Assembly: GCA_043808365.1 (NCBI GenBank)
Contig: JAZDEZ010000001.1
Coordinates: forward strand, 1 to 56,894
DNA: 56,894 nt
Reading direction: 5' to 3'
Origin: Patescibacteria group bacterium
GTDB lineage: Bacteria; Patescibacteriota; Patescibacteriia; UBA10025; JAHIVO01
Notes under the pieces: model-generated
Told to the model about the DNA's origin: nothing
Seen by the model: the letters and a program-made list of their open reading frames with translations, nothing else
Database searches by the model: none
Made by a program: the position numbers and the translations under genes
In this document: positions 1,516 to 43,699 of the stretch, in pieces
Position numbering within the stretch: position 1 is the stretch's first letter
How the letters are laid out: every line of letters begins with the position of its first letter

Positions 1516-1895
1516 GAGAGTTGTCCATTCCAGCCCCCGAGCATTTTACCGATTTCATCTATTTTCACCGACAGCACGATGTACTTTTTGTTATCCAGCG
1601 ACTTTGTTTCCCATAATATCATTAGGAGTATTTTCAGGGTGTCAGTTTTCTGAATAGCTCGTCTGACATAGGGCAGTTTTTCAGTTCGTCCTAAGAAACT
1701 CGCAGTTGCAATCGCTTCTATTGTTTCAATGAATAGAGTATCAATGCGCTGGCCAAGCGTGTGCCTGTGCGTTTTGGGTATTGTCTGAAAATAACCAAAC
1801 CAAAGCAGATAGGTGCTTTTTACCTTTTGCAGTACTGGCAAAAGTCTGGGGGGGGGGGTAGAATTAGCGGTATGAGTAAGATTCAACTCGTTCAT
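1497..1895 (-). CDS. avd: Avd-like accessory variability determinant (four-helix-bundle family)
   Basis: FQTIPKTHRHTLGQRIDTLFIETIEAI...KIDEIGKMLGGW matches remembered Bordetella phage BPP-1 Avd blocks (SIPRKHGVAREMF..., IAEVGRILGSW); an alternative TTG start at 1841 would give 114 aa. Confidence 0.75.
   Translation of the reverse strand: MNELNLTHTANSTPPPRLLPVLQKVKSTYLLWFGYFQTIPKTHRHTLGQRIDTLFIETIEAIATASFLGRTEKLPYVRRAIQKTDTLKILLMILWETKSLDNKKYIVLSVKIDEIGKMLGGWNGQLSKIKLP
1848..1858. repeat. G11/C11 homopolymer tract
   Basis: Eleven consecutive G on the + strand; encodes TPPPR in the avd N-terminus if avd starts at 1895; ends 14 nt upstream of the RT ATG at 1872. Confidence 0.95.
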
Positions 1896-2975
1896 GCGTA
1901 TCAGTATATCATTTCCATGGAGAATTTACTTGCCGCGTGGCAGGAATTTTTAGCTGGCAAGCGCTCTCGCCGAGATGTTCAAGAGTATGAGATTAATTTA
2001 ATGTGCAATATTATTTCGCTTCATAATAATCTTGCATCTAAGAAATATACACACTCTCCGTATCAAGCGTTTAATATTTCCGATCCCAAGCCACGCAATA
2101 TCCATAAAGCCAGCGTGCGAGACAGGTTATTACACCATGCGCTGCATCGTGTGTTATATCCGTTTTTTGATCGGACGTTTATTACTGATTCGTATTCGTG
2201 CCGGATTAATAAAGGTACGCATAAAGCCATTAATAGGTTTCATGCGTTTGCGTATAAGGCGTCACACAATAATACTAAAACCCTTTGGGTGTTAAAGTGT
2301 GATATTAAAAAGTTCTTTGCTTCAATAGATCAGTCAATCTTGATTGATATTATTAATGAATACATTCCCGACCAAGATATCCGCTGGCTTATAGGTCAGA
2401 TTGTCGGCAGTTTTCATTTAACCGAAGAAGGCAGGGGATTACCGCTTGGCAACCTGACATCCCAACTGTTTGTAAACGTGTACATGAACGAATTTGATCA
2501 ATTCGTAAAGCATAAGCTCAAAGCAAAGCATTACATACGATACGCGGATGATTTTGTTTTTATGTCAAACAGCAAATCATGGCTGGGATCACTTATTCCC
2601 TCGATTAGTGGTTTTTTGACAGCCAGACTTCAGCTCACACTACACCCGCAGAAATTGTTTCTGAAGACGTTGGCATCAGGCGTTGATTTTCTGGGGTGGA
2701 TACATTTTCCAGATCATCGAGTGTTGCGTACCACGGCTCGACGGCGGATGGCGAGCCGTATTATGGAACATCCAACTAATGAAACAATTCAGTCTTACTT
2801 AGGCTTGCTCAAACATGGGAATACTGAGAAAATAAAGTCGCAAATACTGGACAGCCAATACTATGCTGAAGTAAGCCCCGCCCGCTTCGCCTTGCGAAGC
2901 AAGGCGGGCGCGGCAAATGAGTCTCGGCCGGAGGCTGATCCGCCTTTGGCGGAAAATGTGAGACACCAGGTATGA
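1872..2975 (+). CDS. DGR-type reverse transcriptase
   Basis: MSKIQLVHAY...; RT motifs including GLPLGNLTSQLFVNVY (the [ILV]GxxxSQ signature of DGR RTs) and catalytic YADD (IRYADDFVF); no maturase/endonuclease extension; the ORF track start at 1761 is probably too early. Confidence 0.85.
   Translation: MSKIQLVHAYQYIISMENLLAAWQEFLAGKRSRRDVQEYEINLMCNIISLHNNLASKKYTHSPYQAFNISDPKPRNIHKASVRDRLLHHALHRVLYPFFDRTFITDSYSCRINKGTHKAINRFHAFAYKASHNNTKTLWVLKCDIKKFFASIDQSILIDIINEYIPDQDIRWLIGQIVGSFHLTEEGRGLPLGNLTSQLFVNVYMNEFDQFVKHKLKAKHYIRYADDFVFMSNSKSWLGSLIPSISGFLTARLQLTLHPQKLFLKTLASGVDFLGWIHFPDHRVLRTTARRRMASRIMEHPTNETIQSYLGLLKHGNTEKIKSQILDSQYYAEVSPARFALRSKAGAANESRPEADPPLAENVRHQV
2879..2910. repeat. GC-rich nested hairpin (REP-like) inside the RT 3' tail
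   Basis: Inner stem CTTCGC/GCGAAG (loop CTT) within outer stem GCCCG/CGGGC; same architecture as 24288-24325 upstream of the RAYT gene. Confidence 0.5.
2927..2955 (+). repeat. 29-nt hairpin repeat, copy 1 (RT tail)
   Basis: GCCGGAGGCTGATCCGCCTTTGGCGGAAA equals the reverse complement of 4916-4944 in ileS at 28/29 positions. Confidence 0.8.
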
Positions 2976-3024
2976 CATTTTAACTTCCCTGGAAGTAGGA
3001 CATTTTTAACTTCCCGTTGACAGG
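2968..3024 (+). mobile_element. Terminal inverted repeat (right end) of the putative transposon
   Basis: AGGTATGACATTTTAACTTCCCT..AAGTAGGACATT...GACAGG; the reverse complement of 56752-56806 matches at about 50 of 57 positions, with perfect 23-nt and 12-nt blocks; contains two copies of GACATTTT(T)AACTTCC; outer end reads ...TGACA. Confidence 0.6.
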
Positions 3025-4068: not shown

Positions 4069-4164
4069 CGAAAAGCTCCAGGAATATGACACCAGGAGCT
4101 TTTATTTTTTTCGAGTTTACACCTGGACAATACCTACATTTTTTTGTACAATCAGTACTACATT

Positions 4165-7152
4165 ATGCCTGACAATAAACAAAAGGCACCGACACCGAAA
4201 TCAATCTTCCCAGGGCTTGAAAAGGAAGTATTGGCTTTTTGGGAAAAGGAAAATATTTTTCAGAAGACGCTGGACCAGACGAAAACTGGAAAACCGTTTG
4301 TTTTTTTCGAAGGGCCGCCGACGGCTAATGGCAAGCCAGGCATCCACCATGTCTTAGCCCGGGCGTATAAGGACGTTATCGTCCGGTACAAGACCATGCG
4401 CGGTTTTTACGTCGAGCGGAAAGCCGGCTGGGATACGCACGGATTGCCAGTCGAGATTCAAGTCGAAAAAGAGCTGGGCATATCGGGCAAGCCGGAGATC
4501 GAAAAATTCGGCATTGAGGCATTCAACAAAAAATGCCGGGCCAGCGCGTGGAAATACAAGGCTGATTTGGAAGCCATGACCCGCAAAATCGGCTTTTGGC
4601 TGGACATGGAGCATCCGTATGTGACATATGAAAATAAATACATTGAGTCATTGTGGTGGGTGATCAAGCAGATCTGGGACAAAGGCTTATTATACAAAGG
4701 CCATAAAGTCGTGCCGCATTGCCCTCGCTGCGGTACGGCGTTGTCATCGCATGAGGTGGCGCTCGGCTATAAATCTGTTGAGGAGAATTCCGTTTACGTT
4801 AAGTTCAAAGTTGTCGGCCAAGAGAACACTTATATATTATCTTGGACTACGACACCGTGGACCTTACCTGGAAATGTTGCGCTTGCGGTAGGCGAGGATA
4901 TTGTTTATGTAAAGATTTCCGCCAAAGGCGGATCCGCCTCCGGCGGAAAAAATATAAGATATATTGTAGCGGAGGCGGTAGCAGGGAAGCTTTTTCCGGA
5001 AGCTGAAGTCGTGGAAACCCTAGCCGGCGAACAATTGGTTGGTTTGGAGTACGAACCGCTGTATGACATCAAGCCTTTGCAGAAAGAAACCGCGTATAAA
5101 GTTTATGCCGCTGATTTCGTCAATACCGAGGAGGGTACGGGCGTCGTCCATACTGCCGTCATGTACGGCGAGGACGATTTTCAGTTGGGAGAAAAAGTCG
5201 GTTTGCCGAAACACCATACTGTTGATCTGAACGGCAATTTTACGGCAGAAGTGTCCAAATGGGCCGGCCAATTCGTTAAAGATAAGTCAGTGGAAAAGGG
5301 GATTGTCGCTGATTTGCGTGAACGAGGACTGTTGCTGAAAGAGGAAATGTACCGCCATGATTACCCGTTTTGCTGGCGATGCGGGACGCCGCTCTTATAC
5401 TATGCAAAGGATTCATGGTTTATAATGGTTAGTAAAATTAGGGATGAGTTAATTAGGAACAATGAAACGATAAACTGGGTACCTGGGTACATCAAACACG
5501 GGCGGTTCGGCGAATGGCTGAACGAGGTCAAGGACTGGGCGTTTTCCCGCGAACGGTATTGGGGCACGCCGCTCCCGATCTGGGAATGCGAGAAATGCCA
5601 GGCGCGCGAATGCATCGGCTCGGTTGAAGAGCTCGTAGCTCGTAGCAAGGAGCACGTAGCAGGAAGCCACGCGCCACAAGCCACGCGCCACAAGCTGGAT
5701 TTGCACAAGCCATATGTCGATAAAATAACGTTTGTTTGTTCGTGCGGCGGGAACATGCACCGGGTCAAGGAAGTGGCGGATGTCTGGTTTGATTCCGGCG
5801 CCATGCCGTTTGCCCAGTGGCATTATCCGTTTGAGAATAAGGATCGCATTGACGCCGGCGGCAGTTATCCGGCTGATTTCATTGCCGAGGGCATTGACCA
5901 GACTCGGGGCTGGTTTTATACCTTGTTGACCGTCGCCACGCTGCTTGGTCATGGAGCGCCGTACAAGAATGTTATCTGCCTGAATCTGGTTTTTGACGCA
6001 AAAGGTCAAAAGATGTCCAAGTCAAAGGGCAATATCATTGACCCGTTTTATATTATCGACAAGTTCGGCGCCGACACGCTCCGTTGGTTTTTGTTTACCG
6101 TCAACCAGCCCGGGGACGCCAAGCTTTTCGACGAATCTCAATTGGACGAGGTCGTAAAGAAGCAGTGGCTGGTCCTTTGGAATATTTTGTCATTCTGGAA
6201 GATGCATGTCGGCCAGGCTAAAGATTCGTATCTTGATGAAAAGTTTACACAACCGCGAAGCGGGCACGTCCTGGACAAATGGATTCTGGCCAAGACGAAC
6301 GACACTATCGGCCAATGCACTAACCATTTGGAAAATTACAACATGACTGAATCCGGGCGCTTGATCGCTGAATTGATAAAGGAGCTGTCAACGTGGTACG
6401 TACGGAGGTCCCGTAACCGGTTCAAGATTGATGGGCAGGACAAGCAGGATGCCTTGGCGGTCTTGCGTTTTGCGTTGGTTACTATTGCCCGGTTACTGGC
6501 ACCGTATGCGCCGTTCATGGCTGAAGCACTTTACCGTGAAGTCAAGGGCCAGAACGAACCCATGAGCGTGCATCTGGCCGGTTGGCCGTCCGGTGAAGCG
6601 ACGGCAGAAGAAGCCGCGGTCATCCTGAAGCAAATGGTATTGGTCCGCCAGGCGGTTGAGCTTGGCCACAGCCTCCGGAAGGAAAAACAGATCAAGGTCA
6701 GGCAGCCATTGCCGCAATTCATCATTCGCGGCAAGCCACTAGACCCGGCACTGAAAGAGTTGGTCAAGGATGAGGCCAATGTAAAGGAAGTGATCTGCGT
6801 GGAAAAAATGCCCCAAGGCCCGGAATTTGCCGTAAAAGAAGCCGGCAGTCTGGCCGTGGCTCTGGACATGACCATTACGGATGAGCTGAAATATGAAGGC
6901 ATGGTCAGGGAGATGATCCGCCAGATCAATGCCATGCGCAAGGACGCGAAATTGACCATCGGTGACACAGTCGCCTTGTATTATGAAATTCCCGATCAGG
7001 AATTGGAAAAGATGTTCCTCCATTATAAAAATACGATCATCCGCGATGTCATCGCCAGCGGTTGCCTGAAGGGCATCCCTGATAATGTCGACCTGAAGAC
7101 CGTATTTGAAATTGCGGGCGTCCGCGTGACGTTCGGCATCAAAGGGAAATAG
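4165..7152 (+). CDS. ileS: Isoleucyl-tRNA synthetase
   Basis: Class I signatures (PTANGKPGIHHVLAR, KMSKSKGN), WTTTPWTLPGN editing-domain block, zinc CxxC pairs; ATG at 4165 is in frame with the track ORF. Confidence 0.95.
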   Translation: MPDNKQKAPTPKSIFPGLEKEVLAFWEKENIFQKTLDQTKTGKPFVFFEGPPTANGKPGIHHVLARAYKDVIVRYKTMRGFYVERKAGWDTHGLPVEIQVEKELGISGKPEIEKFGIEAFNKKCRASAWKYKADLEAMTRKIGFWLDMEHPYVTYENKYIESLWWVIKQIWDKGLLYKGHKVVPHCPRCGTALSSHEVALGYKSVEENSVYVKFKVVGQENTYILSWTTTPWTLPGNVALAVGEDIVYVKISAKGGSASGGKNIRYIVAEAVAGKLFPEAEVVETLAGEQLVGLEYEPLYDIKPLQKETAYKVYAADFVNTEEGTGVVHTAVMYGEDDFQLGEKVGLPKHHTVDLNGNFTAEVSKWAGQFVKDKSVEKGIVADLRERGLLLKEEMYRHDYPFCWRCGTPLLYYAKDSWFIMVSKIRDELIRNNETINWVPGYIKHGRFGEWLNEVKDWAFSRERYWGTPLPIWECEKCQARECIGSVEELVARSKEHVAGSHAPQATRHKLDLHKPYVDKITFVCSCGGNMHRVKEVADVWFDSGAMPFAQWHYPFENKDRIDAGGSYPADFIAEGIDQTRGWFYTLLTVATLLGHGAPYKNVICLNLVFDAKGQKMSKSKGNIIDPFYIIDKFGADTLRWFLFTVNQPGDAKLFDESQLDEVVKKQWLVLWNILSFWKMHVGQAKDSYLDEKFTQPRSGHVLDKWILAKTNDTIGQCTNHLENYNMTESGRLIAELIKELSTWYVRRSRNRFKIDGQDKQDALAVLRFALVTIARLLAPYAPFMAEALYREVKGQNEPMSVHLAGWPSGEATAEEAAVILKQMVLVRQAVELGHSLRKEKQIKVRQPLPQFIIRGKPLDPALKELVKDEANVKEVICVEKMPQGPEFAVKEAGSLAVALDMTITDELKYEGMVREMIRQINAMRKDAKLTIGDTVALYYEIPDQELEKMFLHYKNTIIRDVIASGCLKGIPDNVDLKTVFEIAGVRVTFGIKGK
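4916..4944 (-). repeat. 29-nt hairpin repeat, copy 2, in frame inside ileS
   Basis: TCCGCCaaaGGCGGA followed by TCCGCCtccGGCGGA (two perfect 6-bp hairpins); translated as SAKGGSASGGK. Confidence 0.8.
5631..5700 (+). repeat. Heptamer-periodic tract inside ileS
   Basis: gctcgta gctcgta gcaagga gcacgta gcaggaa gccacgc gccacaa gccacgc gccacaa gctggat: ten 7-nt units all starting GC; encodes ELVARSKEHVAGSHAPQATRHKLD. Confidence 0.7.
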
Positions 7153-24167: not shown

Positions 24168-24234
24168 GACCCGACTGAAGTCGGTAAGAAGGGAGAAACA
24201 GTGTTATTATTCTTAGCTACTTTTGTGGCGTCAC
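24168..24234 (+). repeat. REP-like module A upstream of the RAYT gene
   Basis: GACCCGACTGAAGTCGGTAAGAA (palindrome CCGACTGAAGTCGG) ... TTCTTAGCTACTTTTGTGGCGTCAC; related to 24911-24933 and 25030-25076. Confidence 0.6.
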
Positions 24235-24287
24235 TTTATAACAATGATCGAGCTGAAGCCGGTAAGAAATTCATAGCCACTTTCCTG

Positions 24288-24325
24288 TCCGCCATTGGCT
24301 TCGCCAAAGGCGAAGGCAGGCGGGA
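24288..24325. repeat. GC-rich nested hairpin (REP-like)
   Basis: TCCGCC attgg CTTCGCC aaa GGCGAAG gca GGCGGA; same design as 2879-2910. Confidence 0.5.
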
Positions 24326-24357
24326 GTGGCGTAGTTCAAGACGGCAAGTAAAGGTGT

Positions 24358-24888
24358 ATGTCCAGATATTTTCTCGATGGAGCGTATTATTTCATTACCG
24401 TACCAACGATTGGGCATCGGCGTTTTTTTGATACTTCGGAAAAAAAACAGTGCGTTCTAGCCAAATTCCATGAGGCTGCGCAAAAGTATCATCTACGAGA
24501 TTTTGATTTCAGTATCGTTTCCGATCATTATCATGTAGTTTCGTTTTTTGAAAAAGGTTTGTTCATTCCGAAATTTCTCCAATACGTAAATGGTGGTAGC
24601 GCGTATGTCTTCAACAAGTTGACTGGTAATAGCATACAGGTTTGGGATGAATACCATGTTTATGTCGTTGAGGATGATGCCGTTTTAGCACGAGTGTGTG
24701 GGTATGTAGTTGGGAATCCTTTAAAACATGGAGAGGTTAAGAATTTCGAAGAATTGGCACATTATCCATTCTCTAGTTATCAGCTTCTGGCGGAGCGGCT
24801 AGGTGACGAAACAGCACTAGAATATGTAAGGTCAGTGGTTCTACTGGATGATGCAAGATTGGCCAGTGACCTAACTAAAGTTTATTAG
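24358..24888 (+). CDS. REP-associated tyrosine transposase (RAYT / IS200-like HUH Y1 transposase)
   Basis: YYFITV, HUH motif SDHYHVV and C-terminal YVVGNPLKHGEVKNFEELAHYPFSSY align to remembered E. coli RayT blocks (TWFFTV, PEHMHCIW, YIYINPVKHGWVKQVSDWPFSTF). Confidence 0.8.
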   Translation: MSRYFLDGAYYFITVPTIGHRRFFDTSEKKQCVLAKFHEAAQKYHLRDFDFSIVSDHYHVVSFFEKGLFIPKFLQYVNGGSAYVFNKLTGNSIQVWDEYHVYVVEDDAVLARVCGYVVGNPLKHGEVKNFEELAHYPFSSYQLLAERLGDETALEYVRSVVLLDDARLASDLTKVY

Positions 24889-24910
24889 ATTGATTCGACT
24901 GTTTTGCAGT

Positions 24911-24933
24911 GACCCGACTGAAGTCGATAGGAA
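24911..24933 (+). repeat. REP-like module B downstream of the RAYT gene
   Basis: GACCCGACTGAAGTCGATAGGAA, near-identical to the start of module A. Confidence 0.6.
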
Positions 24934-25029
24934 AATAGACGCTCCAGGCTGGCAGTGAGCGGAAAAATTGGCTCAGTAAGAATAAAATAAAGTCGTCTTG
25001 AAATAGGGGGTGGTTTTTTATTAGGTCTT

Positions 25030-25076
25030 AACCCAACTGAAGTCAGTAAGAATTCTTAGCCACTTAAGTGGCGTCA
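25030..25076 (+). repeat. REP-like module C downstream of the RAYT gene
   Basis: AACCCAACTGAAGTCAGTAAGAATTCTTAGCCACTTAAGTGGCGTCAT; contains the perfect palindrome GCCACTTAAGTGGC. Confidence 0.6.
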
Positions 25077-25103
25077 TTGGTTGCTGGTGGAAAAATTGGT
25101 AGA

Positions 25104-34955: not shown

Positions 34956-35258
34956 ATGCACAAGACGTATTGCGTATACATAATGACTAATAGGGGAAAC
35001 GTGGTGCTGTATACCGGTGTTACCGGTAATTTGGTAGGGCGGGTGTTGCAGCATAAACAGCGACTCGTACCGGGTTTTACCAGCCGGTACCGCGCGTGCA
35101 AGCTGGTATATTTTGAAGAGTATCAGTATGTGAATGACGCTATTACGAGGGAGAAGCGAATAAAGAACTGGCATCGTCAATGGAAGATCAACCTGATAAC
35201 GAAGAATAATCCGAAGTGGGAAGACTTGGCGGCGGGTTGGCATGAGACCCTGAAATAA
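34956..35258 (+). CDS. GIY-YIG nuclease family protein (UPF0213-like), paralog 1
   Basis: YCVYIMTNRGNVVLYTGVTGNLVGRVLQHK...REKRIKNWHRQWKINL; GGGAGG upstream of the ATG at 34956. Confidence 0.85.
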   Translation: MHKTYCVYIMTNRGNVVLYTGVTGNLVGRVLQHKQRLVPGFTSRYRACKLVYFEEYQYVNDAITREKRIKNWHRQWKINLITKNNPKWEDLAAGWHETLK

Positions 35259-43411: not shown

Positions 43412-43699
43412 ATGACGTATTACGTGTATATTCTTACCAACAAGTCCAATACAGTACTGTATATCGGGACTACTCGTAATCTTGAATATCGGGTTTGGCA
43501 ACATAAACATAAAGAAGTGCCTGGATTCACTAGTCGTTATAATGTAGTGAAGTTAGTTTATTATGAGGAATATGATTTGGCGATTGACGCGTTTACTAGG
43601 GAGAAACGTCTGAAAAATTGGCATCGGGATTGGAAAATTAATTTAGTCACTGGTGTTAACCCAACTTTCGTTGACCTGTCAGCTGCGTGGTATAGATAG
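43412..43699 (+). CDS. GIY-YIG nuclease family protein, paralog 2
   Basis: YYVYILTNKSNTVLYIGTTRNLEYRVWQHK...REKRLKNWHRDWKINL; clearly paralogous to 34956-35258. Confidence 0.85.
   Translation: MTYYVYILTNKSNTVLYIGTTRNLEYRVWQHKHKEVPGFTSRYNVVKLVYYEEYDLAIDAFTREKRLKNWHRDWKINLVTGVNPTFVDLSAAWYR

Follow-up and report, generated by a model that had tools for sequence, protein, structure and literature searches.

A dispersed 30-nt double-hairpin repeat inserted in frame in the isoleucyl-tRNA synthetase gene of a Patescibacteria bacterium

We analyzed a stretch of 56,894 nucleotides (the window; contig C1, JAZDEZ010000001.1 of assembly GCA_043808365.1) from a Patescibacteria group bacterium with a genome assembly of 1.03 Mb (24 contigs, 49% GC, 88% complete). 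We found two copies of a 30-nt structured repeat, here termed the double hairpin (DH), one lying in frame within ileS, the gene for isoleucyl-tRNA synthetase (IleRS), and the other in the 3′ extension of an open reading frame (ORF) for a group-II-intron-like reverse transcriptase (RT). It is very likely that both copies are members of a family of insertion elements and that the ileS copy is an in-frame insertion, a judgment that concerns the element and not the identity of its mobilizer. Comparisons were drawn with 30 related genomes including three congeners (31 with this genome), and the pattern TCCGCCNNNGGCGGATCMGCCNNNGGCKGA, with 24 specified bases, was run against species-representative genomes.

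A first-pass annotation made from the window sequence had reported that GCCGGAGGCTGATCCGCCTTTGGCGGAAA (2927-2955, + strand) is the reverse complement of 4916-4944 at 28 of 29 positions, and our search of the window confirmed this. The two stretches were the sole matches in the window when three mismatches were allowed, and no match to the 29-mer appeared in any of 100 shuffles of the window, such that none is expected by chance. The shared repeat is real, but its natural unit is 30 nt (2924-2953 and 4918-4947), the 29-nt frame having cut off one differing position. Each unit is built from a pair of 15-nt hairpins that abut, each hairpin having a 6-bp GC stem and a 3-nt loop; the stem sequence is TCCGCC/GGCGGA or a compensated variant, for example TCAGCC/GGCTGA or CCCGCC/GGCGGG. 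The annotation's single pairing-preserving change in the RT-side copy becomes two differences over 30 nt, which together make up a single base pair, C-G in the ileS copy and, in the RT-side copy, a G·T wobble on the + strand and A·C on the - strand. The ileS copy (4918-4947, no strand assigned) is of subtype B (TCCGCC-AAA-GGCGGA + TCCGCC-TCC-GGCGGA) and is flanked by TT (4916-4917) and AA (4948-4949), while the RT-side copy (2924-2953, - strand) is a variant of subtype A, reading TCCGCC-AAA-GGCGGA + TCAGCC-TCC-GGCCGA on the minus strand, and is one step from the subtype with second stem TCAGCC/GGCTGA, not from the ileS subtype. Together with its flanks (TTTCCGCC...GGCGGAAA, TT and AA included) the ileS copy forms a near-perfect palindrome. 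Both of its 15-nt units have perfect stems, as described earlier, but as single-stranded DNA it is predicted to prefer a single extended hairpin (-14 to -15 kcal/mol, z about -5); for the RT-side copy, the predicted single-stranded fold has the two hairpins (-9.6 kcal/mol). Rfam at gathering thresholds and tRNA scans returned nothing in the window, and DH is therefore not a known RNA family.

ileS (4165-7152, + strand) encodes 995 aa from the ATG at 4165, or 1002 aa if the ORF is read from the TTG at 4144. The product matches PF00133 (tRNA-synt_1) at 2e-125 as well as PF08264, has the PDB homologues 8c8w and 1ile (E < 1e-250), and is otherwise intact, with KMSKS and WTTTPWT motifs present. No second match of IleRS grade was found in the genome, making this the sole IleRS. 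The DH insert lies in the CP1 editing domain, about 20 residues past the Thr-rich WTTTPWT motif, where it is translated as SAKGGSASGG, residues 259-268 of the 1002-aa ORF or 252-261 counted from the ATG; the in-frame reading SAKGGSASGGK given in the first-pass annotation is correct. We drew the corresponding IleRS segment from the 30 related genomes, of which 29 gave one that could be aligned, and found that in 20 of the 29 relatives, the three congeners included, a turn of six residues joins two conserved strands (...Y-V-K-[IV] xxxxxx [YFL]-I-[LV]-A...). The same turn holds 14 residues in this IleRS, 10 of them element-derived, for a net gain of 8 codons, so that orthologues are indeed shorter at the insert point, as the first-pass annotation had it, but by 8 residues and not by about 10. 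The congener proteins are 80-85% identical to it over 235 aligned residues and all lack the insert, as do most of the other 26 relatives. Four of the 29, from more distant lineages, have longer turns of unrelated sequence at the insert point, with other length differences elsewhere, so the turn tolerates changes in length. The peptide SAKGGSASGG occurs at this point in none of the 29 aligned relatives, and no target duplication was found at the ileS insertion. An AlphaFold2 model of the CP1 segment (mean predicted local distance difference test score, pLDDT, 91; predicted template modeling score, pTM, 0.88) places SAKGGSASGG at the tip of a β-hairpin, between segment strands 63-70 and 79-85, with a local pLDDT of 76 compared to >95 on either side, and the best solved homologue (8c8w chain A) has a short turn at this position. 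The ileS insertion postdates the divergence of this lineage from its congeners. As a separate observation on IleRS architecture, a subset of IleRS proteins from the candidate phyla radiation (CPR; P0156, P0168, P0170, P0192, P0197, P0199, P0204 and others) are 1120-1190 aa long and carry an extra PF00300 (histidine phosphatase) domain, a fusion absent from this genome.

Copies of the element are numerous across the genome. TCCGCC-N3-GGCGGA was its most over-represented perfect 6-bp hairpin (32 copies, the next commonest having 15), and we counted 17 DH sites on 12 contigs, comprising 12 copies of subtype A (a TCCGCC unit with a TCAGCC/GGCTGA unit), three of subtype B (two TCCGCC units, the ileS copy among them) and two of subtype C (a TCCGCC unit with a CCCGCC/GGCGGG unit), a third, degenerate copy of the last falling outside the count. 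CCCGCC-N4-GGCGGG hairpins numbered 15. Nearly all single and double hairpins lie outside long ORFs; a copy at C16 15927 inside a 350-aa ORF was rejected as an in-gene case and counted as intergenic because it is upstream of the likely Met start. The three congeners have 0, 1 and 0 DH copies, and genomes elsewhere in the class at most nine. DH is thus a dispersed, mostly intergenic repeat that is expanded in this genome. Beyond these relatives, the 24-base pattern occurred in at least 119 stretches of species-representative genomes compared to about 0.02 expected by chance. Carriers are mostly Patescibacteria, with other bins labeled Omnitrophota, Ignavibacteria, Kiritimatiellae, Lentisphaerae, Verrucomicrobiota, Elusimicrobia, Gammaproteobacteria, Desulfotomaculaceae and more, and some carrier contigs exceed 1 Mb. 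Exact matches to the DH pattern were also present in 12 contigs predicted to be viral (IMG/VR, L206-L217). Because the two window copies are only 2 kb apart, their similarity could have reflected local duplication, gene conversion between the two sites or chance, without any family of elements being involved; this we consider next to impossible, given that a chance match is not expected, that the two copies are of different subtypes, that 17 copies are spread over 12 contigs and that at least 119 stretches lie in other genomes.

We then tallied phase, flanks and stem changes in 84 elements from 80 loci. Sixteen of the 84 lie deep inside long ORFs, and 15 of these 16 are in the TCC-GCC phase, which reads Ser-Ala-x-Gly-Gly (P = 8e-7 under equal phases). 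Subtype B contains no stop codon in any phase, while subtype A has a TGA in the Ser-Ala-x-Gly-Gly phase, which is why the in-gene copies are of subtype B. The flanks were also constrained, with T at -2 in 72 of 82 elements, A at +2 in 59 of 82 and T at +2 in only 2 of 82; the 5′ consensus is (T)TT, and G and A are nearly absent at -1 and -2. On either strand of the palindrome the 3′ flank is rich in A and shows no T run, so we rejected the idea that the element is an intrinsic (rho-independent) terminator. The first hairpin nearly always has an RRA loop and the second a TYY loop, transition derivatives of AAA and TTT, and the stems are almost invariant. Relatives contained ten fully paired stem variants, and units with two changes were compensated in 16 cases vs. 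3 uncompensated, which indicates that hairpin formation in each 15-nt unit is under constraint.

Empty and filled versions of a single host site show how the element is placed. A REP-like host palindrome, TAGCCACTT-A-AGTGGCGT, is empty at 25057-25074 (+ strand) and at 24214-24231, and at C3 31268 and C9 3431 the same palindrome is filled at its center by DH, with exactly 30 nt and no duplication of flank bases between empty and filled forms. A further filled version, TAGCCACTT...AGTGGCGT at 24274-24332 (+ strand), about 25 nt upstream of a RAYT-like transposase gene, holds a 42-nt nested hairpin with the related stem TTCGCC-AAA-GGCGAA (-21.7 kcal/mol, z -6.5). Such nesting of one hairpin within another recurs at 2875-2911, next to the RT-side copy. 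A structured repeat of 30 nt, DH arrives whole, entering between T and A without target duplication and often where another hairpin has its apex, and is subsequently retained or lost by selection. The first-pass annotation had spoken of a mobile palindromic element that lands in an essential gene without breaking the frame; the in-frame insertion stands, and the distribution of copies together with the empty and filled sites suggests that DH is, or recently was, mobile.

Other genes have received the element as well. Among the 120 IleRS proteins nearest to this one, two others, both from different CPR genomes, contain SA[KQ]GGSASGG, at residue 528 in the insertion region of the catalytic domain (L229, P0200) and at residue 860 in the C-terminal domain (L228, P0223), positions that are non-homologous to each other and to the window site. 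The underlying DNA is the same 30-mer, between ATC and AAA in one gene and between TTT and TAT in the other, and at one of the two sites the protein gains about 10 residues. The first-pass annotation had pointed to IleRS from unrelated lineages as a place where the peptide might recur independently; none of the 29 aligned relatives carried it at the same point, and the two among the 120 nearest proteins that have it elsewhere have the identical 30-mer. Three separate arrivals in IleRS are hard to explain except by recurrent insertion. Other coding regions in this genome yielded one decayed in-frame copy, in an ORF for an FtsX-like permease (429 aa; C11 2964-2993, - strand), where TCCGCCAAAGACCGGTCCGCCTCTGACGGA matches DH at 25 of 30 positions and encodes SAKDRSASDG in the same phase as the ileS copy, within a lineage-specific, low-complexity stretch of about 31 residues that has no counterpart in related permeases. 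The copy is probably what is left of an earlier insertion into the gene, its stems having since decayed, though the size of the insertion is uncertain because the permease 'orthologues' are only 46-50% identical.

Two alternatives to insertion bear on these in-gene copies. Since loop length varies in distant lineages and four relatives have unrelated longer turns, the Ser/Ala/Gly stretch might be a native, selected feature of IleRS from which the repeats derive. We regard this as highly improbable: three congeners, 80-85% identical, lack the stretch, its nucleotide sequence matches a dispersed repeat exactly, both perfect stems included, and the 30-mer is also found at two further positions in IleRS and, elsewhere, in unrelated genes. 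We give equally little credence to a sequencing or assembly artefact, for example a synthetic linker or an amplification chimera. The core of subtype B does contain GGATCC, a BamHI site, and all carriers are metagenome-derived assemblies, but these come from many unrelated projects, loops vary and stems show compensated variants, subtype A lacks GGATCC, and copies occur in frame in intact genes and at fixed places in the arrangements of tRNA and GIY-YIG genes described below.

The RT-side copy led the first-pass annotation to tie the element to the 3′ tail of the RT gene, an association that proved coincidental. The RT ORF runs from the ATG at 1872 to 2975 (+ strand; in-frame ORF 1761-2975), matches RVT_1, and matches TIGR04416 at 140 bits, below the cut-off. 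It has more than 8,000 homologues, the closest of which are 65-84% identical and mostly 320-345 aa long (a few about 400 aa). Fourteen of the 15 closest aligned homologues end at, or within about 10 residues of, ...DSQYYAE(VS), corresponding to a conserved end near 2873-2880, and the remaining one has an unrelated longer tail. The last 31 residues of the ORF (PARFALRSKAGAANESRPEADPPLAENVRHQV) have no counterpart in homologues, and the tail past ...YYAEVS is the translation of DH and of a nested palindrome at 2875-2911 (no strand assigned), which sits at the conserved RT end with an inner GCTTCGC-CTT-GCGAAGC inside an outer CCCGCC/GGCGGG stem (-17 kcal/mol, z -3.4). Judged from these alignments, the tail is a lineage-specific read-through and not part of the conserved RT; the DH copy is in effect intergenic, because homologues end upstream of the tail, and is read through because the neighboring stop-free palindrome displaced the RT stop codon.

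It could still be proposed that the RT spreads DH through an RNA intermediate, which would account for both the copy in the RT ORF extension and the ileS copy 2 kb away, and for the mitochondrial double-hairpin elements spread through RNA was at one time suggested on the grounds that they lack flanking duplications, according to PMC2800124 (citing Paquin et al. 2000). We rejected the RT as mobilizer, since this copy is past the point where conserved RT sequence ends and the occurrence of the element does not follow that of the RT, and we rate the proposal as very improbable. The RT is single-copy here and absent from all three congeners; it occurs in 8 of the 30 relatives, with 14 relatives having the element and no RT and three having the RT and no element, so that RT presence was unrelated to element counts (Spearman's ρ = 0.05, Fisher P = 1.0). 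None of 120 RT homologues carries the DH peptide, and DH copies are spread over 12 contigs.

Other features of the RT region are recorded here in their own right. The RT family is patchy (9 of the 31 genomes), and three distant RT homologues (P0012, P0014, P0083) share the in-frame stretch upstream of its ATG (1761-1871; ...KPKQIGAFYLLQYWQKSGGGGRISG-M); this suggests a conserved, possibly structured non-coding RNA or leader before an abundant CPR RT family. The most frequent 13-16-mer family in the genome, GACATTTT(T)AACTTCC, has 21 copies, with sites at 2974-3022 and about 56800 (- strand) of the window and at the ends of contigs C15, C16, C17, C19, C20, C21 and C24. It forms two or three direct subterminal repeats at about 25-nt spacing that end in ...CGTTGACA or ...CACTTCCGTG(C/G)GACA, beyond which the flanks diverge. 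With many copies at contig ends, these repeats look like the ends of a multi-copy transposon that breaks the assembly, and the RT gene and the RT-side DH lie just inside one such end.

To look for candidate mobilizers we took every ORF lying no more than 2 kb from any of 105 elements and clustered the set without supervision, which returned a single recurrent family, a GIY-YIG protein of 80-90 aa. A small GIY-YIG ORF was within 180 nt of the element at 7 of the 105 sites (P = 3e-8 to 5e-5, depending on gene density), and the adjacency recurs in relatives (G015, G016, G020, G011 and G007). In the clearest of five loci, a 5′ tRNA fragment ending in the TT of the D-loop is followed by DH, the GIY-YIG gene and a complete tRNA. 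GIY-YIG counts were positively correlated with element counts (Spearman’s ρ = 0.54, phylogeny uncorrected), and this genome ranked highest of the 31 for both, with 15 matches to PF01541. On such proximity and co-variation, a family of small (about 85 aa) GIY-YIG nucleases acting in trans may be the mobilizer; we hold it as the leading candidate, tentatively and at somewhat long odds. The window itself has two small GIY-YIG genes (34968-35192 and 43418-43642), beside which there was neither a TCCGCC hairpin nor a tRNA gene (ARAGORN found none in the window). Another small GIY-YIG gene is at C21 68028-68285.

The second candidate is a RAYT/IS200-type Y1 transposase, under which DH would be a REP/REPIN-type repeat moved by the genome's RAYT-like Y1 (HUH) enzymes acting on single-stranded hairpins. 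Six PF01797 matches are present in the genome. Five are RAYT-like genes with products of about 200 aa, of which four are on other contigs and one is in the window (24358-24888, + strand; PF01797 at 23.8 bits; NF047646 REP_Tyr_transpos at 63 bits, below its 80-bit cut-off), and the sixth is an IS200/IS605 TnpA. Y1 counts track element counts over the 31 genomes (ρ = 0.42, P = 0.017, phylogeny uncorrected), DH is nested in a palindrome of the repeat family flanking the RAYT-like gene in the window, and insertion without duplication beside a short T-rich motif is in the style of IS200/IS605. However, canonical TCCGCC DH flanks no RAYT-like gene here or in the 30 relatives, each such gene having other hairpins, and presence or absence of Y1 was not significantly associated with that of the element (Fisher P = 0.13). 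No Y1 match was present in G026, a relative with nine elements, or in the complete genomes of G015 and G016, with 3-4 elements, and DH shows neither a GTAG head nor significant strand bias. We therefore judge Y1 mobilization unlikely; a mobilizer of some unrecognized kind is quite possible.

Around the Y1 genes themselves, the RAYT-like gene in the window is bracketed by its own modules (24200-25080), consisting of CCGACT-GA-AGTCGG + TAAGAA + TAGCCACTT/AAGTGGCGT in a REP/RAYT-style arrangement, and its flanks also hold GCCACTT/AAGTGGC repeats, not canonical TCCGCC DH. The IS200/IS605 TnpA (C13 74-523; PF01797 at 139 bits) belongs to a copy with ends of the CTGCCGACT...GTCGGCAG type, the hairpins of which differ from DH, and the end sequence GCCGACTTCCAGTCGGCAG... 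occurs at seven places in the genome.

A mechanism can be outlined in which DH would move as folded single-stranded or cruciform DNA, recognized by a structure-specific enzyme supplied in trans, and would insert between T and A at exposed, loop-like sites. With a length of 30 nt and a stop-free subtype B, any insertion would preserve the reading frame, and selection would purge in-gene copies in the other two phases, which read as poly-Arg or Pro-rich, leaving the Ser/Ala/Gly phase as the only one tolerated in proteins, mainly in surface loops. ileS survives because a 30-nt unit without a stop in the TCC-GCC phase is read as flexible Ser/Ala/Gly residues that extend a surface β-hairpin at its tip. 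Taken jointly with the GIY-YIG association, DH could be the smallest self-contained mobile DNA module known and the integration end of GIY-YIG/tRNA cassettes, also traveling alone, with the structure-specific nuclease of about 85 aa placing it between T and A at hairpin apices or other exposed loops, without duplication and by a mechanism unlike that of any described transposase; it might have spread across phyla among co-occurring uncultured bacteria, possibly with help from phages, as the 12 viral contigs would allow. As a whole this composite is possible but doubtful.

Several observations weigh against mobility of this kind. Movement itself was not observed, and a strain-level empty ileS allele was not found: the window IleRS formed a singleton cluster in a nearest-relative search over residues 150-450, where the nearest IleRS is 82% identical. 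ileS gained 8 codons instead of 10 and, at residue 860 of the third IleRS (L228), DH seems to replace a stretch of similar length, from which it follows that insertions are not always exact or that small deletions occurred afterwards. More than 85% of copies have no GIY-YIG neighbor, and element counts rise with Y1 counts as well as with GIY-YIG counts. The orientation of subtype A was not significantly related to local GC skew (8 of 12 here, 22 of 35 elsewhere) or biased relative to gene strand, and thus lends no support to a strand-specific single-strand mechanism. Finally, part of the phylum labels on carrier bins may stem from mis-binning, because nearly all other carrier genomes are metagenome bins.

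Among known systems, the Rickettsia palindromic elements (RPE), reportedly described by Ogata and colleagues in 2000 as 'selfish DNA in protein-coding genes', are a close functional parallel. RPE are in-frame selfish palindromic DNA in genes of Rickettsia (PMC10969869). Like DH, they are dispersed palindromic repeats that lie in frame in genes, essential ones included, add an extra surface segment and encode no transposase. Unlike DH, which has 30 nt and occurs in assemblies with many phylum labels, RPE are about 100-150 bp long and confined to Rickettsia and close relatives, and the two are unrelated in sequence. The double-hairpin elements of Allomyces mitochondria (Paquin, Laforest and Lang 2000) and the GC clusters of yeast mitochondrial DNA (Wenzlau and Perlman 1990), both as cited in PMC2800124, are likewise made of adjacent short GC-rich hairpins that are intergenic and occasionally inside genes. 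As PMC2800124 presents them, the Allomyces elements also lack flanking duplications and are patchy among close relatives, from which their mobility was inferred. Those elements are organellar, whereas the DH host has a 1.03-Mb bacterial genome with ileS, recO and tRNAs, and DH carriers are free-living or episymbiotic bacteria; DH further differs in a stem that is nearly invariant across very distant genomes and in its tie to small GIY-YIG genes at tRNA loci. In functional terms, DH behaves like RPE and these mitochondrial elements.

Other short palindromes resemble DH in part. REP/REPIN elements, which according to Bertels and Rainey (2011) reportedly go with RAYT (TnpA-REP) Y1 transposases, share with DH a short GC-rich palindrome, many mostly extragenic copies and lineage-specific expansion, and in this genome RAYT-like genes are present and DH is nested in a REP-like palindrome. 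DH differs in lacking a 5′ GTAG head and a cognate RAYT flanked by DH, in having in-gene copies, and in occurring in a genome (G026) without Y1. MITEs (miniature inverted-repeat transposable elements) and palindromic derivatives of IS200/IS605 are similarly non-autonomous, protein-less, structured and presumably mobilized in trans. MITEs are several-fold longer than 30 nt and, unlike the classical ones, DH has no target-site duplication, either in the host palindrome or in ileS; unlike IS200/IS605 derivatives, it has no parent insertion sequence or TnpA with matching end hairpins. Full-text searches of the literature turned up the mitochondrial and Rickettsia analogues alone, and nothing published on a comparable element from CPR or any other bacteria.

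Should the family indeed be new to the literature, it would extend selfish DNA within genes from Rickettsia and organelles to CPR bacteria and beyond and, with 30 nt, would be smaller than any known bacterial mobile element. Specific to this case are an insertion site within the editing domain of the genome's only IleRS and the three independent IleRS sites across CPR. The near-invariant stems, free loops, T-A insertion point and minimal GIY-YIG link at tRNA loci make the insertion mechanism testable in vitro. For annotation, lineage-specific Ser/Ala/Gly loops and ORF extensions in CPR proteins, such as the RT 'tail', can be scars of insertion and not adaptations. DH sites form a natural catalogue of positions in essential enzymes, three of them in IleRS, that tolerate a flexible insert of 10 residues.

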